NCBI GenBank assembly: GCA_039808765.1 | Contig: JBDHTQ010000004.1 | Coordinates: forward strand, 4,642-68,641 | Source of the DNA: Bdellovibrionales bacterium | GTDB taxonomy: Bacteria > Pseudomonadota > Alphaproteobacteria > UBA2400 | Direction: 5' to 3' | DNA length: 64,000 bases | In this document: one piece after another, positions 3,403-54,302 of the stretch | Layout of the letters: every line of letters starts with the position of its first letter | How positions within the stretch are numbered: the stretch's first letter is position 1 | Notes under the pieces: model-generated | Told to the model about the DNA's origin: nothing | The model's input: only the letters and a program-made list of their open reading frames with translations | Database searches by the model: none | Program-made: the position numbers and the translations under genes

Positions 3403-4035
3403 TTAAGGACGCGTGTACTTAAGCGCCATCACCAGAAGGTCTTCTTGGGGCTGCTGCCACGTGATATCCACCCCATACTCTTTGGCAAAACAAGCCGTTA
3501 GATACGGATGGATGCTTTTTGCTGTGAGATCGGGGACATCAACTTCTTGGCGCAAGGGGGCCCACGCCTCATCGCGCTGACCGGCGGCGCGTCCTTCGGC
3601 CTGAATCTCAAAGCGGGCGGCATCATCAAAGCCAGTTAACGTAATTGTTCCGCCATGAACAAGTGCCTCCACAGCAATAATTGCACAGTTTAGCAATACT
3701 TTGGGGATACCGCGGACGACAGTTTGCGCGCGAAAGGCAGCGTTATCCCATTGTAAATTCACGCGACTGCCTTGCAAGTAGTCGCGTAGGGTAAGCAAAA
3801 CATCATCTGCCGTTAGGTTGGAATCCGCTCCAGCGGCGCCGTAGGATAAGCGAAAAAGACGCAAGCGGCGGGAAGCTTGTTCAGCAGAATGGCCAATTAA
3901 TTTTACGGCTTCTTCGCCGACCTGATTTCCCATTTCCTCAAGTAATTCAAGGCCATTGTTAATTGCTCCCACGGGGCTGATCAGATCATGACAGATCCGT
4001 GATGCCAAAAGCTCCATTATCCGCACATCGTGCAT
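3403..4035 (-). CDS. chpT: ChpT-family histidine phosphotransferase (cell-cycle CckA-ChpT-CtrA relay type)
   Basis: The motif LASRICHDLISPVGAINNGLELLEE matches the ChpT signature (Caulobacter ChpT has LAARLCHDFISPASAI). The likely start is MHDVRIMELL at 4035 (about 211 aa); the 270 aa ORF in the track carries an N-terminal extension. Confidence 0.7.
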   Translation of the reverse strand: MHDVRIMELLASRICHDLISPVGAINNGLELLEEMGNQVGEEAVKLIGHSAEQASRRLRLFRLSYGAAGADSNLTADDVLLTLRDYLQGSRVNLQWDNAAFRAQTVVRGIPKVLLNCAIIAVEALVHGGTITLTGFDDAARFEIQAEGRAAGQRDEAWAPLRQEVDVPDLTAKSIHPYLTACFAKEYGVDITWQQPQEDLLVMALKYTRP

Positions 4036-4198
4036 AGTTTGTATACCCTTCTTATTGTTTACAGCCTGAGCGAGGTTATGTGGGTCACAAGATTGCCGTT
4101 TTATGTGTTTCTGGCAACCCCTCACGTGAAGCGGAAGGAAATATTTACGAAATTTTGCCAGAATGTCGCATATCCTCTGATTTTGGACGGAGAAGCGG

Positions 4199-6181
4199 AT
4201 GGCCACCCCCCTCAATGATGATGAAGCAATCGACGCTGGGCGGGTTATGTTGTCTCAATTGTTTGGCCGCGACGGGCCGAGCGAGGGGGTGGTTGGACAA
4301 CTCCATGATATATTGCAGCATATGCTGGCCATATACAGCAGCGCATTTTTGCTTCTTGCGGGTTTTATCATTCTTTTTCATATTATTTTTGCTGTGGCTG
4401 AGACAGCGCAGACCGGTAAAATTATGGGTGGACGCATGGATCCAGTTTGGGGGCCGATGCGGATGGTATTGGTGATTGGGTTGCTGGTGCCTTTGGGGGG
4501 GATGAACAGCGGTCAGTATGGTATAATGTATCTTGCCGAATGGGGATCTGGAATCGCAGCTAAGCTTTGGCAGGAAACTAGAGATCAGGCGGATTTTTTA
4601 AAACCTGTCCTGAGTTTGCCCAAGCCGCCGTCAGCTTTGCCTTTGGTTCAGGCGTTGGTGATTCGCGATATTTGTGAAATTTATACCACGCGGTTGGCTC
4701 AACAAATTGAAGAGCAAAAAGCCAAGCAAGCCAAAGAGGGCCAAGCTCAACCCAATGTGCCCGTACAAAAAAACCTTATTCAAGCCGTAAAGGCGCAACC
4801 GCTTAAAAAAAATGCGGATGGTTCTGCAACGCAGTCATATGGCTGGAGTGAACGTCCGTATTTTTGCGGAGCAGTGACTTATTTTGAAAGTGATGAAGAT
4901 AAAAATCTCAATCCATATTTCTTTATCGAAAAAGCGCACTTCGACGCGTACATGTATCTGGACAGAACATTAGAGACGACGGCTGTTGACTATGTCGCCC
5001 AAATAGCCGGTCAAGCCAATCCATCGATCGGGTCATTGCAACGGGTTGCTGATCGTTATGAAGAAATTGTTCAAGAGGCTTTGAGTGAAGAGTATCAACA
5101 AATCCTCCTTTCAAAAGTGGCCACCATGCGTACGCAAGCAGCACCCGCTGGCTGGATGGCTGCGCCAAGGGTTTTGAGTGATTTAATGCAGCTTAATACG
5201 GGTGTTTTGACGGCTATTTCATCACTTCCGCTTATTGACGCGCCTGAGGTTTTGCTTGATCCACCGTTGCCGCCGAATGGTAAAAAGTCAATAGAAGAAA
5301 CCGCTGAATATTACATCTATAGCGCACTTGATCATGTGCAATCATCGTGGAAGGAAAGCGCGCCTATTACGCTAAACGCCGGACATGGGTTGAGCGATTT
5401 TACTCATGCCTTAGAGTATACAATCTCTTATGCGCGCATGACAGGAGAAGAGGGCACCACAGCGCATAAAATTCGTGCGTTGCGGGAGATGATGCCCTAC
5501 GATTTTTTTGATATCACAGTATTGCAAAAAGATAGCCCGTTGGTGTCATTGCCAAAAATTGGACTCTATTTACAAAGCAAGGCTTTGCAGTTGTTGGCCA
5601 GTGCAGGTGTTATGCGTGATATTGGCGACATCGCATCACCTTTTGCGACGTTGTTGTGTGGCTTTGGGTGGATTGCGTATGGGGTTAGTTTTATCATTAT
5701 GCTTTTGTTGCCGCTCATCCCGTTGGTGCGATTCATGATTGGCGTACTGACATGGATGTTGCAAGTTTTGGAAGGGGTAATCTCGTTGCCTCTCATTGCA
5801 ATTGCGCACCTGCGCATGAGTGATCATGGATTGATCAACCAAAGCGCATTGTGGGGGTATGTTCTAATTCTTAAAATTGTTCTGCGTCCGCCATTGATGA
5901 TCATAGGTTTTGTTGGTGGATTGATCATTTTTTTAATCGCATTAGGTCTTATCAACCCGCTTTTTGCCTTTTTGCTTACCTTGACAACAAGTTCGGGACA
6001 ATTTGCTGCTTTATGGTCGCTTGCATTGTGGGTTCTCTATGGTTTAATGGCTTTAGCTGTGGCCAATGCCTGTTTTAAACTTATTGATGTCTTGCCGGAA
6101 AAAGTTTTGATTTGGGCAGCATTTATTCCTTCGGCATTTAACAAGCCCACATCAAGCGCATCGCTTCCCGCCAATAATTGA
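4199..6181 (+). CDS. Large polytopic membrane protein, paralogue of 23568-26399; putative DotA/TraY-like (alternatively extended VirB6/TrbL-like) type IV secretion inner-membrane component
   Basis: 660 aa, with two N-terminal transmembrane segments, a hydrophilic domain of about 350 aa and a C-terminal cluster of 4-5 transmembrane segments. Motif blocks are shared with the second copy: TGKIMGGRMDPVWGPMRMVLVIGLLVPLGG and LPLIPLVRFMIGVLTWMLQVLEGVISLPLIAIAHLR. Confidence 0.4.
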   Translation: MATPLNDDEAIDAGRVMLSQLFGRDGPSEGVVGQLHDILQHMLAIYSSAFLLLAGFIILFHIIFAVAETAQTGKIMGGRMDPVWGPMRMVLVIGLLVPLGGMNSGQYGIMYLAEWGSGIAAKLWQETRDQADFLKPVLSLPKPPSALPLVQALVIRDICEIYTTRLAQQIEEQKAKQAKEGQAQPNVPVQKNLIQAVKAQPLKKNADGSATQSYGWSERPYFCGAVTYFESDEDKNLNPYFFIEKAHFDAYMYLDRTLETTAVDYVAQIAGQANPSIGSLQRVADRYEEIVQEALSEEYQQILLSKVATMRTQAAPAGWMAAPRVLSDLMQLNTGVLTAISSLPLIDAPEVLLDPPLPPNGKKSIEETAEYYIYSALDHVQSSWKESAPITLNAGHGLSDFTHALEYTISYARMTGEEGTTAHKIRALREMMPYDFFDITVLQKDSPLVSLPKIGLYLQSKALQLLASAGVMRDIGDIASPFATLLCGFGWIAYGVSFIIMLLLPLIPLVRFMIGVLTWMLQVLEGVISLPLIAIAHLRMSDHGLINQSALWGYVLILKIVLRPPLMIIGFVGGLIIFLIALGLINPLFAFLLTLTTSSGQFAALWSLALWVLYGLMALAVANACFKLIDVLPEKVLIWAAFIPSAFNKPTSSASLPANN

Positions 6182-23079: not shown

Positions 23080-23322
23080 TCAGACGTCTGTAATTTTTCC
23101 AGATGGCTTAACGCTAATGACGCAGTCTTTGTTGATTAAACGGACAGCGCCAGCCACATCCTCAAAAGGAATAAACTTGCGGCTATCGTTTAACATATCG
23201 AGGGCTCTTTGTCCTTTTGCTAAGAAGAAATAGCCTTTCATTCCGTTTCCGGAAGACAAAAGCAGCTCAACTTCCTGCTTGTCTTTTATGATTTTCATTT
23301 CTGTTAAAACGCCAATAGACAC
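23080..23322 (-). CDS. Hypothetical small protein (80 aa)
   Basis: ORF only; no family recognised. Confidence 0.3.
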   Translation of the reverse strand: MSIGVLTEMKIIKDKQEVELLLSSGNGMKGYFFLAKGQRALDMLNDSRKFIPFEDVAGAVRLINKDCVISVKPSGKITDV

Positions 23323-23567: not shown

Positions 23568-26399
23568 TTGGAAGATGATACCCTCCATCCGTGCGGACGA
23601 GGGGGATTGTGGAGAATTGAAATGAGATTTTTTAATCATTTTAAAGCGCGCATACCATCTCTGGGGGGGCAAACGTTAAGATTTCTGTTTGCACCACAAT
23701 TATCTTCAGGTTTTGGCTCAGTCAAAAAAATTGCGGCTTGTTTTGTTTTTATGCTTGCGCAAGTGCTTGGTTCTGCACGTCTTTTGCCAAAATCGCATCG
23801 TTCTCTCAATCCCACCAGCTTGCGTGATGCCCGCTTGGGAGAAATTTTATCACTCGCTTATGTGAACGCCACCAAGCGGGAAACACGCCTTGATCAACGA
23901 TTGGTCTTTGGTGCGGTTTCTACGCTGATGGCGTTGACGGTGATGATGATCGTCAAGATTTTTGTCACTCTTTACATCGGTGTTAGCCACGCGATGACGT
24001 GGACGATTAATTTTAGTTGGGGTGGCTTAAGTTCTGCCGATATTGGTTCTGGTGTCCTGGATATCGGTTCGGGGATTTCTTTAGGCTCATGCTCAGGTCT
24101 AGGGGCATCCACCAATTTGTTTGCTGCGCCGTGCGGCGCGTCCGATATGGCGCAGCAGTGGCTGGCAATGTTTTTCTTGCCCAGTACGACTGTTAGTTGG
24201 AGTAATTCTGTAATGTCCTTGCCCGTTCGTGAAGGGCTATACAGCATGTTTGCATTATATAGCACGGCCATGTTGGTGGTTGCTGGGTTTTTGGTATTGT
24301 ATCATCTGATTACCATTGTGGCGGCGACCGCTCATGAAGGTAAGCTGGGCGGGCGCCAAATGAACCAAGTATGGGCACCAATCCGGCTTGTTTTTGCGAT
24401 TGGGTTGCTGGTTCCGCTAGGGATTGGTAATGGTTTTAATTCCGGGCAAATGATGGTGCTTTATATTACGCAGTGGGGTTCGGCTTTAGCGAGCAATGTG
24501 TGGGCTACGTTTGCGGATACGTTCTCCGACCAGACTGGGGCTTTTGTTATTGCGCCTCCCATGCCGTCAATGGCTCCGGTTTTGAAAGATGCGCTTAAGA
24601 TTCTTACCTGTCAGGCTGGATATAATGTTATGGGGGCAAAATCGGGTGGGTTTGAAGTTGTTATGTCTGAGTGGGTGGCAAATGGCCCTGTCGTAACCAA
24701 ATCTTGGACATATCAGGATGGCTCTGATCGGGAAGTTGGTGTGTGTGGTATCATGGAAATGGTCAACCCTGGTTTTGGCATAAGCGGCGGTAACCTTCTT
24801 TTTCTGAGCAGTGATGGGGCGCTGACAACATCTCAGCTTTTGCGCAAGCAAATAATCGAAGCGCACTTGGCTTTAATGGATGAGGCACTGCAGTCAGGAA
24901 CTGCTGTGGCTCCGACGTGTCAGGCGGATGGCACACCGACGGGCGGAAGCGTCATGGGGGGTGGAACGCTTTGGAGTTTGGCTAACAAATTCTATTGGTC
25001 GGCTAACGGTGGCGAGACGTGTTATCGATTGACAGTGAGTGACCTCAAAGAATTTGGTGATGCGGTTGATACCTATCGTAAAGGTTTAAATGATGCCGTT
25101 GTCGGGATTCTTACCGATGCAGAGGATGAAGCTGCGAACATGGCGGTAAGTGCCCATGAGCGCGGTTGGGTATCTGCAGGTGTTTGGTTTAACTCCATTG
25201 CGCGTATTAATGGTCTTTTGATTGATTTTACGCAAGAGGTTCCGGTTTTACGTCCTACATTAAAAGATCTTTTGGGTGGGGATTTTGCCGATAAAATCAC
25301 TTTGGCACGTCAAAATGTTGATGTCAGCATTGCAGGATTGTCGACCATGGTGGGGGGTAATTACATGAACTCGAGTGAAGCTGCATATGCAACGGCATTG
25401 GGGTCTGGTAGTGCTGGCAGCAGCATGATGGATGCTTATTTGAAAATTTTGGGTATTAATTTATCTTCTGTTGCGGGGGCAACGTCGGGAAGCGACAATG
25501 AGGTGAGCAGTGGAACGACGAGCTCACCGATATTCCGTCTAAATACAGCCAATCCTTTGGCTGAGCTATCAGCCCTCGGCCACCGCGTGATTGATCTGGC
25601 TGTTAAGACAACGCGCAGTCTGACGCAGTGTATGAACACGGCCAAATCGAATCCGGCACAAACAGGCGGCTCTGTTGGTGATCAGAGTGCTTGTAGTGGC
25701 ATCTCTTCGAGTGGTAACACAGGTGAAGGGCTGATTCTGTCAGCGGTGGTTGGTGCGCTTATTTCGGGGGGGGTTACGCTGGCGTTTATGTTGCCGCTCA
25801 TTCCGTTTATTCGCTTCATGTTTGGTATACTGACATGGATATTATCAATCTTTGAAGCAATTATTGCGGTTCCAATTGTTGCTATCGCTCATATTCGCAT
25901 TGATGGTGAAGGGTTGTCTGGACCTTTGGCACGCTCTGCATACATGTTGGTTTTGCAGGTTTTCTTACGTCCCGCCATGATGATTTTTGGGATGATTGTA
26001 GCTTTGCTTATCTTCAACCTGATTGTCATGGCGCTCAATGAATTTTATAGCCTTGCGGTTCAAGGGGTTGAAAACAGCGGTAAGCTGGGCGCGATCAGTG
26101 GCGTTATCTATACAGTCATGTATGCCGCGATGGCGTATGGGTTTGCCAATGCATCCTTTAAGGCCATTGATATGATCCCAAGTCGGGCATTACAGTGGAT
26201 TGGTGGTGGGCAGCAGGCCGGTATGGAGCAGGATATGTTTGTGGTCAATAATGCGGTTTCTCGTGTTGGTGCTGTTGGTCAAAGCTTGTACAGCCCCTAT
26301 GCGGCAATGAACAAAAATCAGGCTGCTGCAATGCATCATGTAGACAGTGCAAGGAGTGGCGCGGTTGCTCCGCGTACCCCGCCGAGTGGTGCGGTTTAA
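23568..26399 (+). CDS. Large polytopic membrane protein, paralogue of 4199-6181; putative DotA/TraY-like (or VirB6/TrbL-like) component, preceded by a 245 bp AT-rich region
   Basis: 943 aa (or about 925 aa from MRFFNHF at 23623). It shares blocks with the first copy: HEGKLGGRQMNQVWAPIRLVFAIGLLVPLGIGNG and LPLIPFIRFMFGILTWILSIFEAIIAVPIVAIAHIR. It has a longer central hydrophilic domain and a C-terminal transmembrane cluster. Confidence 0.4.
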   Translation: MEDDTLHPCGRGGLWRIEMRFFNHFKARIPSLGGQTLRFLFAPQLSSGFGSVKKIAACFVFMLAQVLGSARLLPKSHRSLNPTSLRDARLGEILSLAYVNATKRETRLDQRLVFGAVSTLMALTVMMIVKIFVTLYIGVSHAMTWTINFSWGGLSSADIGSGVLDIGSGISLGSCSGLGASTNLFAAPCGASDMAQQWLAMFFLPSTTVSWSNSVMSLPVREGLYSMFALYSTAMLVVAGFLVLYHLITIVAATAHEGKLGGRQMNQVWAPIRLVFAIGLLVPLGIGNGFNSGQMMVLYITQWGSALASNVWATFADTFSDQTGAFVIAPPMPSMAPVLKDALKILTCQAGYNVMGAKSGGFEVVMSEWVANGPVVTKSWTYQDGSDREVGVCGIMEMVNPGFGISGGNLLFLSSDGALTTSQLLRKQIIEAHLALMDEALQSGTAVAPTCQADGTPTGGSVMGGGTLWSLANKFYWSANGGETCYRLTVSDLKEFGDAVDTYRKGLNDAVVGILTDAEDEAANMAVSAHERGWVSAGVWFNSIARINGLLIDFTQEVPVLRPTLKDLLGGDFADKITLARQNVDVSIAGLSTMVGGNYMNSSEAAYATALGSGSAGSSMMDAYLKILGINLSSVAGATSGSDNEVSSGTTSSPIFRLNTANPLAELSALGHRVIDLAVKTTRSLTQCMNTAKSNPAQTGGSVGDQSACSGISSSGNTGEGLILSAVVGALISGGVTLAFMLPLIPFIRFMFGILTWILSIFEAIIAVPIVAIAHIRIDGEGLSGPLARSAYMLVLQVFLRPAMMIFGMIVALLIFNLIVMALNEFYSLAVQGVENSGKLGAISGVIYTVMYAAMAYGFANASFKAIDMIPSRALQWIGGGQQAGMEQDMFVVNNAVSRVGAVGQSLYSPYAAMNKNQAAAMHHVDSARSGAVAPRTPPSGAV

Positions 26400-26492
26400 C
26401 GTTGGTGGTGCGGGATGTTTGGCTCTTCAAAGTAAAGACATCCCGTGCTAATATGGGGAACAAGACGGCCTTTGTGCGGAAATGAGGTAAAG

Positions 26493-26906
26493 ATGGGATT
26501 TTATGATCGATATAATGCACCGCAACGTCCTTCGGCGCAACGGCCTGTGGACGATGCTCATCCCAAAAGAGGACGTGGTGTTTTTGGGTTGTTTTTTAAC
26601 CCGCAGATCGGCATGAGCCTTCGTCCTTTGCGTGAGACGGGACGCATGTTTACCCACATGATTGCGCTTATTTTGGCTCAAGCAAACCTGCTTGATTCTC
26701 GCCATCCCGCTGTAACCAATGTGGGGGGTGAGCGTTATGGTTTGTTTGAAATTTTGAATATCGCCTATCAACGGATTGAGTGGCGTCAAGAAAATGTTGT
26801 CCAATGTTCAGTTTTTGTGGCCATCCTTGGAAGTATTGTCCTGTGCGGTATGGCACTGGTTTTTGCCTTGTTTACGCTATTGTTCCACGCGGGCGTACAC
26901 CGCTAA
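26493..26906 (+). CDS. Hypothetical small membrane protein immediately downstream of the second DotA-like gene
   Basis: The protein starts MGFYDRYNAPQRP and ends with the hydrophobic segment VFVAILGSIVLCGMALVFALFTLLF. Same strand, about 90 bp gap. Confidence 0.35.
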   Translation: MGFYDRYNAPQRPSAQRPVDDAHPKRGRGVFGLFFNPQIGMSLRPLRETGRMFTHMIALILAQANLLDSRHPAVTNVGGERYGLFEILNIAYQRIEWRQENVVQCSVFVAILGSIVLCGMALVFALFTLLFHAGVHR

Positions 26907-34424: not shown

Positions 34425-36713
34425 TTGTTTTTCATTCTTGCGTTTCTGCGGGCGATGTCGCATGAAACAGAGATGGTTTCTCCCACGGCTGTTGCTGCAA
34501 TGACTCTTCCTCATGATCCTTTACCCGACCCTTTTGCGGCGGACCACAGCTATTTAAATACTTTAAACCCCACCCAGCGGCAAGCTGTTGAAGCGTTGGA
34601 CGGGCCTGTCTTGGTTTTGGCGGGGGCGGGTACAGGTAAGACACGTGTTTTAACGACCCGATTGGCTCACTTGCTGATGAGTCGTCCGCTTTCTCCTTTT
34701 CAAGTAATGGCGGTGACGTTCACCAATAAGGCAGCACTTGAGATGCGTGAGCGCGTTGGGCGTTTGGTTGGCCAAGAGCCGCATGGATGGTGGCTTGGGA
34801 CTTTTCATGCTTTGGCGGCGCGGATATTGCGAAGACATGCACCATTGGTGGGGTTGCAAGACAATTTCACGATTCTCGATGCGGATGATCAATTGCGGTT
34901 GATAAAACAATTGATGGAGATTCATCATCTCGATCAACAGACCAATCCGGCCAAAAGTATTCTTGCTCAGGTGCAAAAATGGAAGGATCGGGGGGAAGAG
35001 CCTCACCGCGTTACGGGTGTTGGAACCGAAGATCAACGCCGTATTTTACGTCTTTACGAGGCGTATCAAGAGCGCCTTAAAAGCCTGAATGTTTGTGACT
35101 TTGGCGATTTGCTTTTGCACAACCTTACCATTTTTCGTGAACATCCAGATGTTTTGCAAGAATGGCAAAATCGTTTTCGTTATGTCTTGGTTGATGAATA
35201 TCAAGATACAAATCTTGCACAGTATTTGTGGCTGCGATTACTGGCGCAAGCACATCACAATCTTTGCTGTGTCGGCGATGATGATCAATCGATTTATGGA
35301 TGGCGCGGCGCCGAGGTGGGCAACATTTTGCGCTTTGAACAGGATTTTCCCGGCGCGCAGCTGATTCGTCTTGAGCAAAACTACCGCTCAACGGGGCATA
35401 TTCTCGGTGCTGCTTCGGGATTAATTGCCAAGAACCGTGAACGGTTAGGCAAAACGCTTTGGACTGAAGCCGACAAAGGGGAAAAAGTTGTGGTGCGTGG
35501 TTTGTGGGACAGCGAAGAAGAGGCTCGCTGGATCGGGGAAGAAATCGAGGCAGCGCAACGCAAAAAAATGTTATTGTCCGATATGGCGATTTTGGTGCGA
35601 GCGGGCTTTCAAACGCGTGAATTTGAAGAACGCTTTGCTGTGATGGGGGTTCCTTATCGTGTCATTGGCGGCGCGCGTTTTTACGAACGGGCAGAAATTC
35701 GCGATGCATTGGCGTACCTGCGTCTTTTACAGCAGCCTGCCGATGACTTGGCGTTTGAGCGGATTATTAATTTACCGGCACGCGGAGTGGGACCAGCAAA
35801 ACTTAAACTTATTCGCGACGAAAGTCAGCAGAAACACGTTTCTCTTTTTCAGGCAACCGCACAGTTGTGTGAGCGTAGAGGGTTTCCTGCTAAATTAAAC
35901 GCAACACTTACCGATCTGGTGGGCAATTTTGCCCGCTGGCGGCAAAAGCTGGAAGAGATGCCGCATCCGCAAGTGGCGTCATTGGTCTTGGATGAAACCG
36001 GTTATCTTGCGATGTGGCGGTTGGACAAATCCCCCGAAGCTCCAGGCCGAATTGAGAACTTGAAAGAGCTGATTACGGCCATGGCGGCATATGAATCCCT
36101 CGGCGCTTTTCTTGAACATGTAGCCTTGGTGATGGAGCTTTCAGAAACAGCGGGAGAAGATGCCGTTACGCTTATGACATTGCATGCCGCCAAGGGTTTG
36201 GAGTTCGATTTGGTTTTTTTACCTGGATGGGAAGAAGGGATTTTTCCGTCTTTGCGCTCATTGGAAGAGAGTGGTGAAAAGGCATTGCAAGAAGAACGAC
36301 GGCTCGCTTATGTCGGGCTCACACGTGCGCGCAAAAAAGCGGTGATTTCATACGTGGCGCGACGGCGTATACGCGGGATGTGGGAGGATGCTTTACCTTC
36401 CCGCTTTATCGGCGATTTACCCAGTGAACATATTGAGCCGTTGCAAAGTCGGGGGTTATATGCACCCCTGGCCGGGCGGCTTGATGCGCGCACAGGCTTA
36501 AGCGGGTGGTCATCTTCGGGCAGCACATTTTCTTCGCCCTCTTACCGGACGGCTGTAACGGCTCATTCCTTCTCGCGCGGGGTGCGGATTTCCCACAAGC
36601 GTTTCGGTGAGGGGCTTGTGCAAAGTGTGGAGGGCGACAAACTGACCATTGCCTTTGACGATGGAGAGGTTAAACAGATTATTGCTTCTTATGTAACGCT
36701 GGCGGATGAATGA
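34425..36713 (+). CDS. uvrD: UvrD/Rep-family DNA helicase II
   Basis: GPVLVLAGAGTGKTRVLTTRLAHL is motif I; motifs II-VI follow (VLVDEYQDTN, VGDDDQSIYGWRGA). Confidence 0.9.
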   Translation: MFFILAFLRAMSHETEMVSPTAVAAMTLPHDPLPDPFAADHSYLNTLNPTQRQAVEALDGPVLVLAGAGTGKTRVLTTRLAHLLMSRPLSPFQVMAVTFTNKAALEMRERVGRLVGQEPHGWWLGTFHALAARILRRHAPLVGLQDNFTILDADDQLRLIKQLMEIHHLDQQTNPAKSILAQVQKWKDRGEEPHRVTGVGTEDQRRILRLYEAYQERLKSLNVCDFGDLLLHNLTIFREHPDVLQEWQNRFRYVLVDEYQDTNLAQYLWLRLLAQAHHNLCCVGDDDQSIYGWRGAEVGNILRFEQDFPGAQLIRLEQNYRSTGHILGAASGLIAKNRERLGKTLWTEADKGEKVVVRGLWDSEEEARWIGEEIEAAQRKKMLLSDMAILVRAGFQTREFEERFAVMGVPYRVIGGARFYERAEIRDALAYLRLLQQPADDLAFERIINLPARGVGPAKLKLIRDESQQKHVSLFQATAQLCERRGFPAKLNATLTDLVGNFARWRQKLEEMPHPQVASLVLDETGYLAMWRLDKSPEAPGRIENLKELITAMAAYESLGAFLEHVALVMELSETAGEDAVTLMTLHAAKGLEFDLVFLPGWEEGIFPSLRSLEESGEKALQEERRLAYVGLTRARKKAVISYVARRRIRGMWEDALPSRFIGDLPSEHIEPLQSRGLYAPLAGRLDARTGLSGWSSSGSTFSSPSYRTAVTAHSFSRGVRISHKRFGEGLVQSVEGDKLTIAFDDGEVKQIIASYVTLADE

Positions 36714-37672
36714 CTTTATCTTCTCGACTTTTTTGTGCCGTTTTGCTCGTTGTAATGAGCGTTTGTCCTCTTACGGCCTTTGCTGCTGATCAGGCGTTGC
36801 CGCTCAGTCAAGCCAATTCCCGCCTTCAAGATGTGGGATCGTTGCATTTTTTGGGCGCAATCGTTGTGCCCCCCGGTCCGGGAAAACTGGGCGGTTTGTC
36901 TGGGTTGGCTTTCAACGATCAGCATGAGCTGGTGGCGTTATCAGATGATTTTCGCATTTACCAAGCTATTCCTCAATGGGTGGGGGGGCGTTTGGTGGGG
37001 TGTGCCTTTAAAATCGGGCAACGGCTGCGTGATCTTGACGGGGGGGTGCCAAAGAATCGCTTTCATGCCGACTCTGAAGGGCTCGTGCACTTAAAAGAAG
37101 GTGGCTGGTTGATCTCGCTTGAACGGGATCATCGGATTTTGCACTTTAGTGAAGATCAGGATGTGCCGAGCGGCATGCCCAGCCTTTATGCACGCCTCGC
37201 CGATTTTGCCGCTCTTTCGGTGAATGCTGGATTAGAATCAATTACCGAACTGAAAGATGGCCGTATTTTAACATTGGCCGAAGATATGAATAGCGACGGT
37301 ACGCATCCGGGATGGTTGTTGCAAAATGGCAACGGAGAGCGGCTAAGTTATGATTCACCGCTGGGCTTGGCACCTTCTGATGCAGCGACCTTGCCGAATG
37401 GCGATGTGCTTGTACTGGAGCGTGGCTTCAATCTGCTTTTTAACTTCCGCGCCCGGCTTGTACGGATTAAAAAGGAAGCGATCGAGCCTGGCAAAATACT
37501 CAAAGGAGATGTTGTTGCTGTCTTGGAAAGCCCTTTAATCACTGAAAATTTTGAAGGTTTGGCCGTTGATCCTCAAAGTGATGGGTCGGTTATTTTGTAT
37601 CTTGTATCGGATAATAACTTTAACGCCGCTCAGCGTACCATCCTTGCTGCATTCCATTATTCGTTTGAGTAA
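36710..37672 (+). CDS. Hypothetical secreted protein, translationally coupled to uvrD (ATGA overlap); possibly phytase-like esterase beta-propeller family
   Basis: Signal peptide MTLSSRLFCAVLLVVMSVCPLTAFAADQA. Length 320 aa. The family assignment is weak. Confidence 0.4.
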   Translation: MTLSSRLFCAVLLVVMSVCPLTAFAADQALPLSQANSRLQDVGSLHFLGAIVVPPGPGKLGGLSGLAFNDQHELVALSDDFRIYQAIPQWVGGRLVGCAFKIGQRLRDLDGGVPKNRFHADSEGLVHLKEGGWLISLERDHRILHFSEDQDVPSGMPSLYARLADFAALSVNAGLESITELKDGRILTLAEDMNSDGTHPGWLLQNGNGERLSYDSPLGLAPSDAATLPNGDVLVLERGFNLLFNFRARLVRIKKEAIEPGKILKGDVVAVLESPLITENFEGLAVDPQSDGSVILYLVSDNNFNAAQRTILAAFHYSFE

Positions 37673-37788: not shown

Positions 37789-38304
37789 ATGCGTCACATA
37801 CGATCCGCTCTTTTAGTTTCTCTCGTTTTTTTAAGCGCTTGCGCCACAAAAACGGACCTTCCGCCTGTCGATAAGACCCATGTGGAAGTCACGAATTCCG
37901 GCGCACCGAGCAGCGCTGAAGTGACAGCGCGCTTGGCAGAGGCCGCACAGAGGACCGCCGATGCGGTTGAAAGTTTGGCTTCGATTGAGCAGGCGCGTAC
38001 ACCCGAGCTTTATACGCCCATCGTGGCGGATGCTCCGGCTGAGCTACGTTTGCTGGTAACGATTCAGTGGAACGGTCCATGGGAAAATCTTCTTAAGGTG
38101 ATGGCTGAGCGCGTGAACTATGATTTCCGCATCATCGGCAAGTCGCCTCCCACACCGATTGTGGTGGTGGTTGATGCGCGCCAGCAGCCGTATGTTGATA
38201 TTATGAGAAATATTGGTTTGCAGGCGGCTGGTCGTGCTGATCTGGTTCTCGATTCACGTAACAGAGTGGTGGAAGTGCGCTATGCTCCGGATACCGGCCG
38301 TTAA
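37789..38304 (+). CDS. DotD/TraH-like lipoprotein (type IVB secretion outer-membrane lipoprotein with secretin-N0-like domain)
   Basis: Lipobox FLSAC. It is 171 aa, matching DotD in size. The C-terminal alpha/beta domain reads LLVTIQWNGPWENLLKVMAERVNYDFRIIG...VVVVDARQQPYVDIMRNIGLQAAGRADLVLD. It is the first gene of a DotD-DotC-DotB-IcmT-ordered block. Confidence 0.55.
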   Translation: MRHIRSALLVSLVFLSACATKTDLPPVDKTHVEVTNSGAPSSAEVTARLAEAAQRTADAVESLASIEQARTPELYTPIVADAPAELRLLVTIQWNGPWENLLKVMAERVNYDFRIIGKSPPTPIVVVVDARQQPYVDIMRNIGLQAAGRADLVLDSRNRVVEVRYAPDTGR

Positions 38305-39310
38305 GCGGTCTCTTTCCTTGACGGTTGAAAAAACCATTCTCACCAGCGTAATGGCCAGCGTGATGGTGACCGTGTTGTTGTGCGGTGTGCTTCCGGCCTG
38401 GGCCGATCCCAATGGCGATAAAATGGGGCGTCCTGACCAAATGCGGATGATTGATAATCATGATAGCACCACCTCGGCTGACCCCTACGATACCCCCATT
38501 TTTGTCCCGCAAACAAAGCCGGCTTATGATGAAACGACCCCGCCAGACATCAATGCAATGGTCAACGAACAGGGAAGCGGTTTAACTGAAGCGCAACGTT
38601 CGGCTATGAAAATTCGTGCCGACGCATTACATGAGGCTGCACTGTCATATGGTGCGCGGGGTGGATTGGCGCGTCGTACATGGGAAATTCGCCAAGAATT
38701 AAATCATTCTTCCAATGATTTGGATCGTACTTATAATTTTCGGCAACTTCTGATTTCAGCGCCTTCTGGTTTGTTGATTGAGCCACCGGTTGTAACTGAA
38801 GCGCAAAAGAATGTTATTGTGTCGGGTGATGGCCAGCAGGCTGCAGTTACTGATCAGCTCTTGAGCATTGGTCGCGAGGCAAGAATTGTGACGGCCGCGC
38901 GTGAGTGGCGTACCTATCTTGAGCGTGACTGGGGTCGAGTTGAGGCTCCGCCGGATGTTTTACTTCCCCGCACTGAGCAAGAGCGTTTGGCATGGGCTCA
39001 ATGGGTTGCCCAAGGGTGGGAAGCGGGTTATCATCAAGGGGATGAGATTTTTCAGTCCGACCTTGATCGGCTTGTGCGTGACTATACCGGCATGGTGCGT
39101 TATCGCTGGCTTTTGGCGCAAAACATGATTTCTCCGCCGTTTGCGCTTCAGCAAGATCGGGGCATTACAGGGGGCGGCAACGAAATGCGCATTGGCGATC
39201 GTGCCTTGTCGATCACGGGGCGCTCTCAATTGCAAGCAAAGCCTGAAGTTTGGCAAGCGGTTCCGCGCACACCGTTACGGTCTGCGTCAGGTGGGGCGAA
39301 CGGTGAGTAG
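38281..39310 (+). CDS. DotC/TraI-like protein (type IVB secretion outer-membrane component)
   Basis: WLLAQNMISPPFALQQDRGITGGGNEMRIGDRALSITG and EAALSYGARGGLARRTWEIRQELN match remembered DotC blocks (LLAMNMVSPPYV...GVTGDGSEIHIDDRVLRIT and ETALSVGAQAGLAWRAKIIDEQLN). The start overlaps the dotD-like stop. Confidence 0.7.
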
Positions 39311-40442
39311 TGCAGCTGGAACGAAGCTTCTTCAAATAGAGACGTGGCCGACTGAGCCCCCACGCATTACTGATGACCTTGTTGATGATCTCATCATGTA
39401 TTGCGTTAAAAATCAGGCCAGCGATATTTCGCTGCAGACAGACCGTCAGGCCTATGCTGAAATTTATGGTATTATTTATCCTTTAACCCAGCGCGTGTTG
39501 GATCCTGCCGATTTGAATGCATTTATGACACGCCTGTACGGGGTTGATGCTGCCGCCAAGCTGGCAGCTGCACGCGACCTTGATCTTTCTTATGAAATCA
39601 AGATCGATCGTTTTACGCGTGTGCGTTTTCGCGTCAATATGACGGCGATTCAGAGTAAAGGGCGCGACGCAGTTCAGATTACAATGCGGGTGTTACCCAG
39701 TGTGCCTCCTTCGTTGGTGGATCTTGGTATTGAATCGGAAATTGTTGACAATTTTGCTCCACGCCAGGGATTGGTTTTGGTCACAGGGCCAACAGGTTCG
39801 GGTAAAACGACGTTGCTGGCGGCGGGCATGCGTACCTTGATTGAGCGTGGGTGCGGCAAAATCCTTACCTATGAAGCGCCAATCGAATTTACTTACGATT
39901 CGGTGACCAATCCGCAAAGCTTGGTCGCGCAAACAGAAATTCCCCGGCATTTGCCGAGCTTTGCCGCAGGGGTGCGCAATGCCTTGCGCCGTAAGCCTAA
40001 CATCATTTTGGTGGGTGAATCGCGTGATCGTGAAACGGTTTCTGCGGCGATTGAGGCTGGGCAAACGGGTCATGCTGTGTACACGACCGTTCATACCCTT
40101 GGGGTTGCGGCTACATTGCGTCGTATGGTGTCTGTTTTTGACCCAAACGAGCGTGCCGAGCGCGCTGCCGCTTTGATGGAAACACTGCGCTTGGTCGTTA
40201 CGCAGGCGCTGGTTCCGCGCTTGACGGGTGGGCGCATTGCTGTACGCGAGTGGATGGTTTTTGATGATTCAGTGCGGGAAGAATTGTTGGATATGCCTCA
40301 GGAACGCTGGGCAAACCGCATTCAACAGATGTTACCGGATCGTGGACAAACGATGCAAAAATCGTCTAAAATAGCTTATGAACAAGGTCAAATTGATCGC
40401 CGTTACTACTTGATGTTGGCGCGCGGCAGTATGGATGGATAA
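39303..40442 (+). CDS. DotB/TraJ/PilT-family secretion ATPase
   Basis: Walker A GLVLVTGPTGSGKTTLLAAGMRTL; the Asp box and Walker B IILVGESRD; the His box HAVYTTVHT. The likely GTG start at 39303 overlaps the upstream stop (GTGAGTAG). Length is about 379 aa. Confidence 0.75.
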   Translation: MSSAAGTKLLQIETWPTEPPRITDDLVDDLIMYCVKNQASDISLQTDRQAYAEIYGIIYPLTQRVLDPADLNAFMTRLYGVDAAAKLAAARDLDLSYEIKIDRFTRVRFRVNMTAIQSKGRDAVQITMRVLPSVPPSLVDLGIESEIVDNFAPRQGLVLVTGPTGSGKTTLLAAGMRTLIERGCGKILTYEAPIEFTYDSVTNPQSLVAQTEIPRHLPSFAAGVRNALRRKPNIILVGESRDRETVSAAIEAGQTGHAVYTTVHTLGVAATLRRMVSVFDPNERAERAAALMETLRLVVTQALVPRLTGGRIAVREWMVFDDSVREELLDMPQERWANRIQQMLPDRGQTMQKSSKIAYEQGQIDRRYYLMLARGSMDG

Positions 40443-40948: not shown

Positions 40949-43435
40949 ATGATGTTGCGCCAAGGCCTCAGAAAATTTTCGTATCAATTCTTGTTGTCGT
41001 CGGTGTTTTTTCTGGCACTTGTGCCTGGCGTTCATGCAGAAGATGCGCGTGCTCCTTTGGCGCGTGCAATTCAGAATATTGTTCCTTCTGGAACCGTGGT
41101 TGTTTATGATCCGGCTGTAAACATTGAGGCGATGGTGGTTGCCCCGGAAGGTAAGGGTGAATGGCTCGCACAGGTGCAACAGATTGCTGATCAAGCGCAT
41201 CTCTCTGTTAAGCAGGAAGATAGTATTCTTCACATTAGCAACAGCGATCAAGATGGAGCCACAGCGGCTTCGCCGGATGTCGTGACCACGCCGGTAGCGC
41301 TTTCCTCTGCAGGGGATGAAGAAGAGAAGTGGGTTGATCAAGGCAAAACGCTCCCGCAAGACACTGCGCCATTAAGCGTTGTCGATGTGCCTGAAACAGC
41401 CACAACGCAAAAGGCGACAGAACAAAAAGTTGCAATGGCTCAAGAGGCCATCACAGAGTCGGTTGGGGCTTCTGCAAACAGTGCCGTAACATCTGGAACG
41501 ATACCGGCCTCGCCGATGCTGACGGAATCTTCAACGCCGGGCGACACTTCTCATGCGAAGGGGGTTGTTCTTGCTTCTAGCAAAAACTTGCCCCAGCAAC
41601 CTGAGCCTTCAGCCGTGACGGCGACGACACCCGACAGCGCGCCAGCAGTTAGTGTGGATTCAGCGGGGGGTGTGGCGATTAACGGTCAACCTGAGACCGC
41701 GCCGATTATTGCATCACCTAACGCGTCAGAGGCGTCACCCGTTGCAACGGGAATGGCTGATACACTTCGTCAAGCCGCGCAAACAGATATTAAGCCTACA
41801 GAAACTTCACCTGTAGTCCAGCCTGTGGCAAGTAATGAAGCAGAAAGCACGCCGCGCACGACAGGGCAAAGCGAGGCAGTATCTGATTCTTCGATTATGC
41901 CGCTTACACCAGCTTCTGAAAAATCAGCCCTTGTTAAGAAAGACTGGGTTGTATCGCCTGTAAAAAAACCCGCTAAACCGACCGTTAACCCGGGCAGTGT
42001 TTCTGTTCAAGCCGCAGATGCTACCGTGAATACACCAGCCTCGGCCCGTTTGGTGAGCGGTACGGTTATGGGAACACCGCGCTGGACAGGTCACCAGGAA
42101 AATCAAGGAAAATTGCGCGATTCCTCTGTCGAAACTTTGTCAGCGGCGGCCCCTGTTCGTGCGTCTGTTGCTGTGCCAGCCCCTGCAATTGCAACCCCAC
42201 CAGCATCCCCAGTTTCATTGACTCTCGATCAAGATGCATCAATGAATGTGCCAGCTCCGATTGGTGTTCGGCAGGATCGCTTAACTGAAACCCCCCTTCC
42301 CAGTAAGGATGCCACACCTGCCCCAAAGGTGGATAAGGTCTTGAGCAAAGCCGTTGAGATTTCCGCCGCTTCAGAAAAATCGTCTACCATGATGACCAAA
42401 GAAGTTGCTCCTGCCCCTGTTGCACACAATGTGACGGGTAATTCATCGTTGGCGCAAGGTACAGTCATGGGGGTTCCGCAATATGATGCGCGTCGTGAAG
42501 CGCGACCCACCAACACCTCGGCTGGAGCAGCTTTGAATGCCGGATCAGTTGGGGGTGTATCGCTTACTTCTGTTTCATCAGCGGGATCGATGCAGGCTGT
42601 GGGCATGATGTCGTTGGGGGGGGCAATTTCAAAACTCAAACCTGCGAAATATCATGTTGTCTATGCTTCCGATGTTGATCCAAGTGTTTCTGTCAATGTT
42701 CCTATGCAGGGGACGTGGCAGGAAAAACTTTCGGCAATTGCTGTGGCCGCTTCCGTGCGGATTGAAGATTCACAAGGGACGCTGACGATTAGGCGCGCTG
42801 TTGAACAAACGAATGGTGCGCCTGTGGTTGCAGCGCCGACTGCATCCCCTGTACATGTATCTATACCCTCATCTGCACCTTTAACAAATAGTGTTCGTGC
42901 TGCGCCAGCAACAGTTGCGCCAGCTGCAGGAAACCCTACAGCGCCCGCTGAAGGGGAACATGAGACCGTGATTCAAACAACCGAAACGGTTGTTGAAGAC
43001 AATGTTTCATCGGACACAACATCTTCTTCATCCCCTCCTCCTGTTGCTCCAACGCCAGAACAGGCAGCGCAAGCAAATGCACAACCCGTTTCTCCACCAA
43101 TGAAAGAGCCTGTGGGGAGTAACTTCGATCCAAATCAGGCCGAGCGTCCTGTTGCCGCACGAGGATTGTGGCAAGCCGAACGTGGTTCGTCTTTGCGTGA
43201 TGTTTTACAATCTTGGTGTGATCGTGCCGGTGTGCAACTGGTTTGGTCGAGTCAATTCGATTTTCCGCTTCAAGCCACAGTTTCTTTGGACGATACGTTT
43301 GAAGGGGCTGTCCGTACGTTGCTGGGGGGATTTTCCTCTGCTTCGCCGCGTCCAGTTGCTCAGCTTCATCGGCAAGCAAATTTTGGCACACGTGTTTTGA
43401 TCGTTCAGACACGCGGTAATCGTTACGGGGAATAA
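40949..43435 (+). CDS. Giant PilL-like secreted protein: signal peptide, roughly 600 aa Ala/Pro/Ser/Thr/Val-rich low-complexity spacer, C-terminal TcpQ-like domain
   Basis: Signal peptide MMLRQGLRKFSYQFLLSSVFFLALVPGVHA. The C-terminal ARGLWQAERGSSLRDVLQSWCDRAGVQLVWSSQFDFPLQATVSLDDTFEGAVRTLL resembles TcpQ/PilL secretin-accessory domains. It sits immediately upstream of the secretin, 4 bp away. Confidence 0.45.
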   Translation: MMLRQGLRKFSYQFLLSSVFFLALVPGVHAEDARAPLARAIQNIVPSGTVVVYDPAVNIEAMVVAPEGKGEWLAQVQQIADQAHLSVKQEDSILHISNSDQDGATAASPDVVTTPVALSSAGDEEEKWVDQGKTLPQDTAPLSVVDVPETATTQKATEQKVAMAQEAITESVGASANSAVTSGTIPASPMLTESSTPGDTSHAKGVVLASSKNLPQQPEPSAVTATTPDSAPAVSVDSAGGVAINGQPETAPIIASPNASEASPVATGMADTLRQAAQTDIKPTETSPVVQPVASNEAESTPRTTGQSEAVSDSSIMPLTPASEKSALVKKDWVVSPVKKPAKPTVNPGSVSVQAADATVNTPASARLVSGTVMGTPRWTGHQENQGKLRDSSVETLSAAAPVRASVAVPAPAIATPPASPVSLTLDQDASMNVPAPIGVRQDRLTETPLPSKDATPAPKVDKVLSKAVEISAASEKSSTMMTKEVAPAPVAHNVTGNSSLAQGTVMGVPQYDARREARPTNTSAGAALNAGSVGGVSLTSVSSAGSMQAVGMMSLGGAISKLKPAKYHVVYASDVDPSVSVNVPMQGTWQEKLSAIAVAASVRIEDSQGTLTIRRAVEQTNGAPVVAAPTASPVHVSIPSSAPLTNSVRAAPATVAPAAGNPTAPAEGEHETVIQTTETVVEDNVSSDTTSSSSPPPVAPTPEQAAQANAQPVSPPMKEPVGSNFDPNQAERPVAARGLWQAERGSSLRDVLQSWCDRAGVQLVWSSQFDFPLQATVSLDDTFEGAVRTLLGGFSSASPRPVAQLHRQANFGTRVLIVQTRGNRYGE

Positions 43436-43439
43436 AGCC

Positions 43440-45038
43440 ATGCAGCAGGCGGTTTCGCGGTACTTTTTGTGTGGGTTGCTTCTTGTAAGCGGTTGCGCAG
43501 ATGAGGCGATAAAAAAAGAAATTGATCAACGCTACGATGTTGCCCAATCGCGCCTTGAAACGGCAAAAAGTCCTGCTGCTGATCGTCGGAGTGATCCGCT
43601 TGAAGTTTCTGACAGTGTTTGGCTTGGTGACTCCGCCATTGCTTTAAAATCCGGTGATCCTCTTCCCGCAAAATGGGTTGGCGAAGGTGCGATTGCTTTG
43701 CGGTCTGATACACCGCTTACGCTCAATCAAATTGTCAGTTTGCTTTCTACACAGACACAGATACCTTTTCGTTTGATCGCCAATGCCCAACAGATGTCGG
43801 GTGGGGCACCTGCTGCTGCAAGTCCTATTGCCAATCCTGCTTCGGGAAATGCGGCAACATCCCCTGTGGAAGATGGAATGACCTTCTCTTATGAGGGAAG
43901 TTTGTCAGGATTATTAGATCTGGTGTGCAGCTATTTTAATGTAAATTGGTATTATAAAAATGGCACGGTTAACATCAGTCGTTACGAAACTCGCACCTTT
44001 GTGCTTGATGCCTTGCCTGGTACGATCACGATGGCCGCACCAGATGACACAGCTGCAACCGGCGATGCCGCGTCTACCGCAACGGCCCAACCTTTGGCTA
44101 ATGCCAGTATTGATATCTGGGAAGATATCAACCGTATCCTGACAAACCTCGTTGGCACAGAGGGAACGTTAACCATTTCACAATCGAGCGGCACCATCGT
44201 TGTGAGCACAACACGTGATCGAATGGAACGGATCGCTGATTTTATTCAGGAAGAAAACCAGAGACTAAGCCGCCAAGTAGCTATTACGATTGAAATGTAT
44301 AATGTGACCATTACAGACCAACAAGAGTATGCACTGGATTTGCAACCGCAAATTAATACGGGGGGATGGTTTGGTAAATGGTTGAATATTTCAAACCTCA
44401 GTGGTGTCACGATCAACCAAAGTGATATTGCTGGGGCTAACTTATCGATTGGATTGATTAATCCCCCTGGTCTTTCTGGGAGTACTTCTGTTTTTCAAGC
44501 ACTAAACACGCTGGGTAAAACATCCCGCATTGCTCAAATTCCTTTGACGACGCTTAATAATCGCCCGGCCACGCAACGAATTGCAACGGATGAGGCATAT
44601 GTTTCGGGAACATCTGTCACGATTGATGCAAACTCGGGCGCAACAACAACAGAAATCACAACAGATAAAGTTGTTTCAGGTATCTCGGTGTCTGTATTGC
44701 CACGATTGATGAGCGATGGGCGTATGCTTTTGCAATATGCCTTAGCCCAAGGGGCACGCATTAAGTTTGATCCCTTTTTCTCGCCTGACGGAACGGCCTC
44801 TGTCCAGTTGCCGCAAACTCAAGGGGTGTCATTCAGTCAGCAAGTTATGATGAAAAATGGCTCGACACTGATTTTAGCCGGGTTTGATCAAAGCGACATG
44901 AATGACAGTCGAAGTTCTCCTCTTCGCGGTTTTGGCTTTTTCCTGGGCGGAACAAAAACAAACAATCAAGGGCGGAATTTGGTGGTGATTGCCATTACTC
45001 CGCGCGAAATCGTGGTCAATAATCCGGAGGCTTCGTAA
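43440..45038 (+). CDS. Type IVb pilus-type lipoprotein secretin (PilN/BfpB/TcpC-like)
   Basis: Lipobox LLLVSGC. The C-terminal secretin domain contains GSTLILAGFDQSD...RNLVVIAITPREIV. Length is 532 aa. Confidence 0.7.
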   Translation: MQQAVSRYFLCGLLLVSGCADEAIKKEIDQRYDVAQSRLETAKSPAADRRSDPLEVSDSVWLGDSAIALKSGDPLPAKWVGEGAIALRSDTPLTLNQIVSLLSTQTQIPFRLIANAQQMSGGAPAAASPIANPASGNAATSPVEDGMTFSYEGSLSGLLDLVCSYFNVNWYYKNGTVNISRYETRTFVLDALPGTITMAAPDDTAATGDAASTATAQPLANASIDIWEDINRILTNLVGTEGTLTISQSSGTIVVSTTRDRMERIADFIQEENQRLSRQVAITIEMYNVTITDQQEYALDLQPQINTGGWFGKWLNISNLSGVTINQSDIAGANLSIGLINPPGLSGSTSVFQALNTLGKTSRIAQIPLTTLNNRPATQRIATDEAYVSGTSVTIDANSGATTTEITTDKVVSGISVSVLPRLMSDGRMLLQYALAQGARIKFDPFFSPDGTASVQLPQTQGVSFSQQVMMKNGSTLILAGFDQSDMNDSRSSPLRGFGFFLGGTKTNNQGRNLVVIAITPREIVVNNPEAS

Positions 45039-45041
45039 ACC

Positions 45042-47193: not shown

Positions 47194-47368
47194 TAATTGT
47201 TGTTTTATCAAACGAACAATTTAAATTATTTGAATGAGTTGCAAACATTCTTGAATCTTTTTAGTCTTCCTTAACCCTAACCAGTGTTAACTAGACCATG
47301 TGCCTTCACGCCTTGTGTTCAACTCAGAAACACATGTGAGTGGCAGGAGAGTGGATTAGGGATAGATC

Positions 47369-49084: not shown

Positions 49085-49143
49085 TTTTTTCGCGTTGAAA
49101 TAACGTGTGTTAACAAAGTGAATGATGACAGAAAGACAAAACG

Positions 49144-50963: not shown

Positions 50964-50984
50964 GTTTACCGTTGCCGGTTCTTC

Positions 50985-52352: not shown

Positions 52353-52360
52353 GAGATACG

Positions 52361-53870: not shown

Positions 53871-54278
53871 ATGCGATTAGGCGAACAGCTCATTAAAAAC
53901 GGTTCGTTGAAACCACACCAACTGCATGCGGCACTGTGTGTGCAAAAAAAGTATCCCTTTCGGTTAGGAAAAATTTTGCATCAACTGGGTATGATTGGAA
54001 AAGGAGCCTTATTAAAGGCTATTTTAATGCAAAAATTTTCAGGTTATTTTTCGCGTTCGCATACCCCGCCTGTCTTGAATTATGTTGCGCGGGGAGAGCT
54101 TTTGCTTGAGCAATTGAATCGCAAAAATCAAGATATTAAATGTGAGATCAAGAGCGGCAACCCACAGCATCCGCGCCAGTATCGTGGCGAGTGGTGCAGT
54201 TATAAAACGAAACATCTTGGCAAAGTGATTGATAAAGATGATGTCGTGGCGCGCAATCTGGAAACGCACAACTTTTAG
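53871..54278 (+). CDS. Hypothetical small protein with a T2SSE_N/MshEN-like N-terminal motif
   Basis: LGEQLIKNGSLKPHQLHAALCVQKKYPFRLGKILHQLGMIGKGALLKAIL follows the LGE.L...G.I...QL..AL..Q...G.RLGEIL..LG.I pattern of GspE N-terminal domains. RBS aaaggag. Confidence 0.35.
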   Translation: MRLGEQLIKNGSLKPHQLHAALCVQKKYPFRLGKILHQLGMIGKGALLKAILMQKFSGYFSRSHTPPVLNYVARGELLLEQLNRKNQDIKCEIKSGNPQHPRQYRGEWCSYKTKHLGKVIDKDDVVARNLETHNF

Positions 54279-54302
54279 CTTTTTAAAGGGCGATTAAAAA
54301 AC

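Follow-up and report, generated by a model that had tools for sequence, protein, structure and literature searches.

To our knowledge, all well-studied type IVB secretion systems (T4BSSs) have one DotA protein and either target eukaryotic cells or serve conjugation. Here, we describe two paralogous DotA/TraY-type genes found in a stretch of 64,000 nucleotides (the window) of contig JBDHTQ010000004.1 (positions 4,642 to 68,641; assembly GCA_039808765.1), whose source, deposited as a Bdellovibrionales bacterium, was treated as an uncultured Micavibrio-related alphaproteobacterial metagenome-assembled genome (MAG). The first open reading frame (ORF), designated DotA-s, occupies positions 4199–6181 (660 aa), and the second, designated DotA-L, occupies positions 23568/23622–26399 (943/925 aa). 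Their products are quite probably the channel paralogs of one chromosomal T4BSS without a relaxase. A protein of this family, DotA of Legionella, was recently shown to be the gatekeeper protochannel of the Dot/Icm machine; according to its in situ structure, it comprises a signal peptide, two transmembrane (TM) helices, TM1 and TM2, an extended domain (residues 154–685), and five hydrophobic helices (PMC12501162). Together with IcmX, DotA makes up a pentameric protochannel that turns into a trans-envelope conduit upon host contact, and the extended domain docks the IcmX cap (PMC12501162). In the 2025 nomenclature review, DotA is listed as the equivalent of VirB6 (PMC12857230).

As for the other related systems, the donor TraY protein of IncI/L/M plasmids interacts with the exclusion protein ExcA of the recipient, as reported in a passage of PMC4416936 that cites Sakuma 2013; the same source indicates that a variable region of TraY is recognised by ExcA. 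Among type IVA systems, four VirB6 paralogs are attributed to Ehrlichia (Bao et al. 2009, as cited in PMC12857230). In the Micavibrionales lineage, a relaxase-less type-I type IV secretion system (T4SS), pT4SSi, was found in seven marine genomes using MacSyFinder (Needham et al. 2022, PMC9418006); therefore, the T4BSS of Micavibrionales is already on record. That census concerns the same lineage and kind of system as the present analysis, but it takes one line and does not include DotA paralogs, their architecture, or arrays. A literature search found no paper that pairs Micavibrio with DotA, nor one that describes arrays of DotA paralogs in T4BSSs. To judge from this search, neither the multiplication of DotA paralogs, nor their short and long architectures, nor the stand-alone N-terminal module considered below seems to have been described before.

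Both ORFs were found in the window at the positions assigned to them in the preliminary description, and the six peptide blocks quoted there are all present in the translations. The collinear similarity that had been claimed from these blocks was recovered by BLASTP as two blocks, an N-terminal one (DotA-s residues 35–175 versus DotA-L residues 220–359, 39% identity, E 7e-27) and a C-terminal one (residues 492–639 versus 732–877, 39% identity, E 3e-31). This similarity is far above chance, hydrophobic composition allowed for, and the paralogy of DotA-s and DotA-L is therefore real. The approximately 360–400 residues separating the two blocks gave no BLAST alignment between the proteins. The frame of DotA-L is indeed open from position 23568 (943 aa), but its most likely translation start is the ATG at 23622 (925 aa), with a GGAG sequence 8–11 nt upstream; the 925-aa NCBI product (P0169) is identical to the translation from this codon. 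The proteins had also been called giant, which holds in a relative sense only, both being smaller than the Legionella DotA (1048 aa).

The DotA/TraY identity, offered with a question mark in the preliminary description, was established at the family level. With the NCBIfam model TIGR04346 (DotA_TraY), whose curated cut-off is 100 bits, DotA-s scored 216.8 bits in two stretches, and DotA-L scored 312.4 bits over model positions 6–656. A sequence search of the PDB returned only the L. pneumophila DotA (9ngy/9nh0), with E 6e-26 for DotA-L and 3.4e-42 for the family profile; the N-terminal block aligned with residues 57–163 of the Legionella protein and the C-terminal block with residues 734–845 and 894–981. 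In the AlphaFold2 models (pLDDT 82.2 and pTM 0.77 for DotA-s; pLDDT 80.8 and pTM 0.73 for DotA-L), each protein has two TM helices in its N-terminal part, a large hydrophilic domain of mixed alpha/beta structure, and a C-terminal bundle of very long hydrophobic helices. The helices of DotA-s comprise residues 31–72, 84–96, 480–536, and 548–626, and DotA-L has their equivalents. The topology proposed earlier is borne out by hydropathy and by the models, which show TM helices at the N-terminus, a large hydrophilic domain (360–400 aa), and a bundle of hydrophobic helices at the C-terminus. Comparison of the models with the PDB in the Foldseek program (E <= 0.001) gave one match, 9ngy_FP1, with a probability of 1.00 for both (DotA-s, E 4.4e-11, TM-score 0.47; DotA-L, E 4.0e-13, TM-score 0.40–0.43).

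It could be supposed that both proteins belong to an alphaproteobacterial housekeeping membrane family unrelated to secretion, since the two genes lie amid housekeeping genes and neither protein has a Pfam model (no family at E <= 1, hence no TrbL/VirB6). This scenario, which the preliminary description had set against its own proposal, is excluded at the family level by the TIGR04346 and PDB matches and is practically negligible: the TIGR04346 scores are two to three times the cut-off, DotA is the sole solved structure matched significantly, whether by sequence or by fold, and the source annotations of the relatives already read "DotA/TraY family protein". The DotA/TraY assignment is therefore secure, already present in automatic annotation, and not new. 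The suggestion that the proteins resemble expanded VirB6 did not fare as well and is reduced to an analogy; besides the Pfam result, the Foldseek matches to VirB6/TrwI chains (7o3v/8rtd) were non-significant (E 1.7–9, probability <= 0.35).

In comparison with the Legionella DotA (Yue et al. 2025, PMC12501162), the window proteins share the TIGR04346 family, the order of elements (TM1–TM2, extended domain, helix bundle), and the GW..A....N motif and cysteines of the extended domain. Unlike these likenesses in plan, identity over the structural alignment is 15–17%, and the extended domain of approximately 530 aa in Legionella is matched by one of approximately 360–400 aa in DotA-s and DotA-L. 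The Legionella protein has a cleavable signal peptide, whereas none is found here; DotA-L carries an N-terminal extension of approximately 200 aa in its place and DotA-s a short acidic N-terminal tail. Legionella also has one DotA copy, whereas the present genome has at least two and its relatives have arrays. TraY of the IncI1 and IncL/M plasmids (R64, pOXA-48 type) belongs to the same family, and DotA-s resembles it in having no long extensions. However, the similarity of plasmid TraY proteins to DotA-s is limited to approximately 125 aa of the C-terminal bundle, with 32–36% identity.

The extended domain has diverged strongly between the two paralogs. When the central domains of the short clade were compared with those of the long clade as profiles using hhalign, a probability of 95.6% was obtained (E 1.3e-8, 287 columns, 15% identity). 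The extended domains of the two clades are thus homologous and extremely divergent, whereas the helix blocks are 39% identical. The family retains in this domain the GW..A....N motif, which aligns with residues 448–484 of the Legionella DotA, and a pair of cysteines that hardly vary (C159 and C223 of DotA-s); this cysteine pair fits a periplasmic, disulfide-bonded domain. Since the domain docks IcmX in Legionella and TraY has ExcA as a partner, the extended domain may be expected to be the part that faces partners or targets. Its hypervariability here is paralleled by the variable region of TraY that PMC4416936 describes as recognised by ExcA.

The dotA-s gene (4199–6181, plus strand) encodes the short paralog, which is composed of an acidic N-terminal tail, TM1–TM2, an extended domain of approximately 360 aa, and a C-terminal bundle of hydrophobic helices. 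It is devoid of the N-terminal extension of 150–200 aa and of the C-terminal tail that most of its nearest relatives have. When 1.84 billion cluster representatives were searched exhaustively with phmmer, 4168 family members were recovered, 385 of them at E <= 1e-30. Only three representatives matched DotA-s over its full length, including the central domain, namely, P0002 (88%), P0008 (40%), and P0009 (partial); the remaining matches cover the helix blocks only. The 90% clusters of DotA-s hold fewer than 20 sequences, all of them metagenomic. DotA-s is a rare, lineage-restricted short form. A word-indexed search with the family alignment A1 added nothing to the six proteins known before.

Orthologs of DotA-s in other genomes have identities of 39–88% and a conserved length of 655–690 aa, and its nearest genomic relatives come from MAGs with the labels Micavibrio sp., Pseudobdellovibrionaceae, or Alphaproteobacteria. 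The dN/dS ratio of dotA-s against the 88%-identical ortholog in locus L018 is 0.073, and DotA-s is under purifying selection; for rodA, a neighbour of dotA-s, the ratio is 0.029. The possibility that dotA-s is a pseudogene was rejected on the basis of this ratio and the conserved length. Both copies are functional, given that they are intact, that dotA-s has the above dN/dS value, and that orthologs of both occur elsewhere.

As stated in the preliminary description, dotA-s is divergent from chpT, the gene of a histidine phosphotransferase (3403–4035, minus strand; gene call and Pfam PF10090). This divergent arrangement recurs in five further genomes or contigs; it is present wherever the flank is visible, in the window and in the loci L002, L003, L004, and L018 fetched from other genomes. 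The idea that CtrA controls the region between chpT and dotA-s (4036–4198) was considered and rejected, as no CtrA box (TTAA-N7-TTAA) is found there; the single occurrence of this motif in the whole window, at 54283, is within chance expectation.

The dotA-L gene (23622–26399, plus strand, open from 23568) encodes the long paralog of 925 aa. Its layout includes an N-terminal extension of approximately 200 aa with its own TM helix, a G/S-rich linker, TM1–TM2, an extended domain of approximately 400 aa, the helix bundle, and a tail of approximately 65 aa. Orthologs of DotA-L with 41–55% identity are found on many metagenomic contigs. The gene is accompanied on both sides by small ORFs. Divergent from it on the minus strand is an ORF of approximately 80 aa (23080–23322) with weak similarity to DUF6812 (Pfam E 4.7e-6, just under the cut-off). 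This ORF is 79% identical to an 81-aa ORF at the matching position of L019, is also present in L005, L016, L017, and L020, and always adjoins DotA-L orthologs, even where the other neighbours differ. It is better conserved (79% to L019) than DotA-L itself (55%).

Downstream of dotA-L on the plus strand is an ORF at 26445–26906 (153 aa; probable start ATG 26493), a paralog of the N-terminal extension of the long DotA proteins. The hmmsearch analysis with the A1 profile detected it with E 4e-14 over profile positions 7–105. The product consists of a cytoplasmic-looking domain and a single predicted C-terminal TM helix, directly after which it ends, and it matched no Pfam or NCBIfam family. ORFs in the matching position of L005 and L017 are 46–48% identical to it, L019 and L020 have a 154-aa ORF there, and the range of the module is approximately 130–155 aa; the L016 copy is truncated. 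A decaying remnant is the less likely reading of this ORF, since at least three other genomes have an intact copy in the same place. The trio of the 80-aa ORF, DotA-L, and the N-module is kept despite differing flanks: the window shares pgm-galU with L005, L016, and L017, whereas L019 and L020 have hfq-hflX. Genomes with DotA-s tend to have the stand-alone N-module, as in the window and in the MAG CAYSDE01 (L003 and L005). This co-occurrence makes it conceivable that the module supplies in trans what DotA-s does not have.

DotA has also multiplied in relatives, which carry tandem arrays of two to four copies. According to the hmmsearch analysis of the fetched loci, four DotA genes stand in tandem in L007, three to four are present in L010, three in L015, and two each in L008, L012, and L016; L005 contains three long copies and the N-module beside galU, and OZ251979.1 has two dispersed copies (L006 and L011). 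A neighbour-joining tree built on the conserved blocks placed all short copies linked to chpT in one clade, apart from the DotA-L clade. The DotA-L of the window grouped with the L005 copies, and tandem copies of different genomes were interleaved. Thus, the paralogs are old, have been maintained side by side, and did not arise by recent duplication; DotA-s and DotA-L are ancient paralogs.

A similar multiplication of the channel subunit is seen in the VirB6 arrays of Rickettsiales/Anaplasmataceae, where it has also given divergent, co-maintained paralogs in tandem or dispersed positions, within a chromosomal T4SS with dispersed genes. However, those systems are of type IVA and not IVB, VirB6 belongs to another protein family, and the hosts are obligately intracellular in eukaryotes, whereas the organisms considered here are putative predators of bacteria.

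The other T4BSS genes of the window lie 32 kb downstream of dotA-s, on the plus strand. They include dotD, encoding the lipoprotein of the outer-membrane core of T4BSS (37789–38304; PF16816, 109.9 bits; NF033882, 102.5 bits), a dotC/traI homolog (38213–39310; PF16932 T4SS_TraI, 262 bits), and the gene of a DotB/TraJ-type ATPase (39141–40442; TIGR02524 DotB, 384 bits, under the equivalog cut-off of 463; TraJ, 246 bits). They are followed at 40949–50205 by a type IVB pilus cluster similar to that of IncI plasmids (PF10671, TIGR02520 with 221.6 bits, PF06864, TIGR03021, PF00437, PF00482), which encodes a PilL-like protein with a TcpQ domain, the PilN secretin, PilO, PilP, the PilQ ATPase, and the PilR platform protein. 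No gene for a PilS pilin, a PilU prepilin peptidase, or a PilV-like adhesin follows the cluster in the window.

The combination of dotD/C/B (traH/I/J) with pilL-R is known from IncI plasmids, in which the traH/I/J-like genes and the PilL-R thin-pilus cluster are likewise co-resident. This hallmark, together with the fact that all plasmid matches of DotA-s are annotated as DotA/TraY, could indicate a remnant of an integrated IncI-like conjugative element (an integrative and conjugative element with MPF-I) in which one or both DotA copies are decaying. Such an origin is highly improbable. No relaxase, coupling protein (T4CP), or integrase was found among the sizeable window ORFs scanned, nor was excA; there is no oriT-type gene near either DotA copy; and no plasmid is evident in the window, so that, unlike TraY, the DotA proteins have no conjugative context here. 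The GC content is even (0.44–0.52) and matches the surroundings of both genes, and their positions beside housekeeping genes are conserved across genomes that are just 39–55% identical in these proteins. The dN/dS value of dotA-s and the short extent of its similarity to plasmid TraY, both given above, speak against a decaying element as well. The window contains the housekeeping genes cheA, chpT, rodA/ftsW, an amidase gene, gyrB, recF, umuDC, dnaN, pgm, galU, pmbA, rplU, obg, proB, proA, grpE, uvrD, bamB, der, and prfC. It is a part of the core chromosome, with T4BSS genes scattered among the housekeeping genes. For the protein encoded at 62836–63438, a look-up gave no record.

Gene order in the relatives bears on the claim that the DotA proteins belong to the same system as the dot genes and are encoded remotely. 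In the window, the DUF2659-bamB-der genes (50280–53800) come directly after the dotDCB-pil cluster, 44 kb from dotA-s. In L002 (9947–15388), dotA-s directly abuts DUF2659-bamB-der. In the Micavibrio MAG locus L004 (12093–16550), dotA-s is followed by a gene of a 157-aa prepilin-like protein, a 617-aa gene without a family assignment, and a gene whose 751-aa product has a prepilin N-terminus, after which DUF2659-bamB-der come next. In L008 (1016–6493), a DotA pair follows a T2SSE pilus ATPase, a T2SSF platform protein, and three ORFs without a family. Given the common DUF2659-bamB-der junction, dotA-s seems to have become remote through the rearrangement of a single ancestral locus; the simplest reading is that an arrangement of chpT and divergent dotA-s, pilus/dot genes, and DUF2659-bamB-der was split in the genome of the window. 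The earlier claim thus gains support from synteny, and we infer, at this strength, that one system is involved.

Under this reading, DotA-s and DotA-L would be parts of a vertically inherited chromosomal T4BSS without a relaxase in a Micavibrio-related alphaproteobacterium, in which the DotA protochannel would open into a trans-envelope conduit when a target is contacted. The paralogs have kept the membrane and channel-forming helices and have diverged in the periplasmic extended domains. They may act as alternative or co-assembling channel heads of one machine, as with the VirB6 paralogs of Rickettsiales, and the varied heads may diversify the interaction with partners or target cells, plausibly in prey attachment and delivery together with the thin pilus. 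Assembly into one machine, the function as alternative heads, and a role in predation are all proposed from the comparisons above.

Several observations weigh against this interpretation. Both proteins missed NF033886, the equivalog model of the Legionella-type DotA (cut-off 500 bits), with 131.5 bits for DotA-s and 203.9 bits for DotA-L; judging by these scores, they are homologs, not equivalogs, of the Legionella DotA. The global TM-scores to that protein are just 0.40–0.47, in a comparison of a monomer model with a chain of the pentamer. Besides DotA, the T4BSS components visible are DotD, DotC, and DotB alone of approximately 20. The 64-kb window and the fetched loci showed no DotG/H/F, DotO, DotL, DotM, or IcmX, and the analysis of unannotated ORFs of the window, L004, and L008 with Pfam and NCBIfam detected no IcmX or other Dot/Icm proteins. 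The predatory lifestyle of the host is assumed from the names of related MAGs ("Micavibrio sp."). Finally, the authors of the M. aeruginosavorus genome paper report no evidence of a T4SS (PMC3189940), although icmO stands in their own gene table.

The two paralogs could also serve different machines, DotA-s a type IVB pilus or adhesion apparatus or a second minimal T4BSS, and DotA-L an effector-translocating T4BSS. The N-terminal extension and the C-terminal tail are indeed confined to DotA-L, and the neighbourhoods differ, with chpT (and, in L004, pilin-like genes) beside dotA-s and the 80-aa and N-module ORFs beside dotA-L. However, the window shows just one set of dotD-dotC-dotB, both copies conserve the channel-forming helices to the same degree, and we know of no role of DotA/TraY in type IV pilus biogenesis. 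Two separate machines are therefore unlikely, and the assignment of both paralogs to one T4BSS is preferred.

Data on a cultured relative come from the same genome paper, whose gene table for strain ARL-13 (Supplement 4) lists GMV_383 as "icmO" (PMC3189940). In this table, pepA, two lptF/G-sized genes, vacJ, and ttg2 are followed by GMV_196–198, which are annotated as "putative membrane proteins" and have lengths of 2694, 2763, and 2742 bp (PMC3189940). In the attack phase, these three genes have expression indices of 11.9, 4.8, and 3.6, and in the attachment phase, of 3.9, 1.7, and 2.8 (PMC3189940). This gene order is the same as that of locus L015, in which the three genes of approximately 900 aa are DotA paralogs. 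From gene order and gene lengths only, the cultured M. aeruginosavorus probably has three DotA proteins. GMV_196–198 and icmO (GMV_383) look like parts of the same system, expressed in attack-phase cells. Two other ARL-13 genes, GMV_223/225 (2691 and 2715 bp), may be further DotA copies.

A wider proposal is that Micavibrio-type epibiotic predators, including M. aeruginosavorus, have domesticated a Dot/Icm-like T4BSS in which DotA has radiated into a short form, long forms with the new N-terminal module, and the stand-alone N-module; the differing extended domains would be exchangeable channel heads that contact prey and, with the IncI-like thin pilus, would make up a long-sought device for prey attachment, injection, or "leeching"; we put it forward tentatively and consider it doubtful at present. 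It would provide a concrete candidate for the mechanism of epibiotic predation, the role in predation being hypothetical. If the ARL-13 synteny holds true, the expansion of DotA extends to a cultured predator. In this lineage, whose named members prey on bacteria, DotA has been duplicated and diversified, with up to four copies in relatives. The family may thus serve as a natural experiment that separates the constrained parts of DotA (the helices) from the part free to diversify (the extended domain), and, for T4BSSs, as a counterpart of the unexplained multiplication of VirB6 in Rickettsiales.

Some other features of the window were noted, all on the plus strand. A protein with a phytase-like esterase domain (PF13449) is encoded at 36710–37672, between uvrD and dotD. 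The region 53871–55274 contains a 135-aa ORF with an MshE-N-related c-di-GMP-binding motif (37.6 bits, cut-off 38), followed by the gene of an AAA_5 ATPase of the dynein-related/MoxR-like type; the 135-aa ORF is conserved after der in L004. Two small HNH-endonuclease ORFs (58491–58919 and 59392–59772) are located close together in the stretch with the lowest GC content of the window (0.435–0.466 over 54–60 kb).

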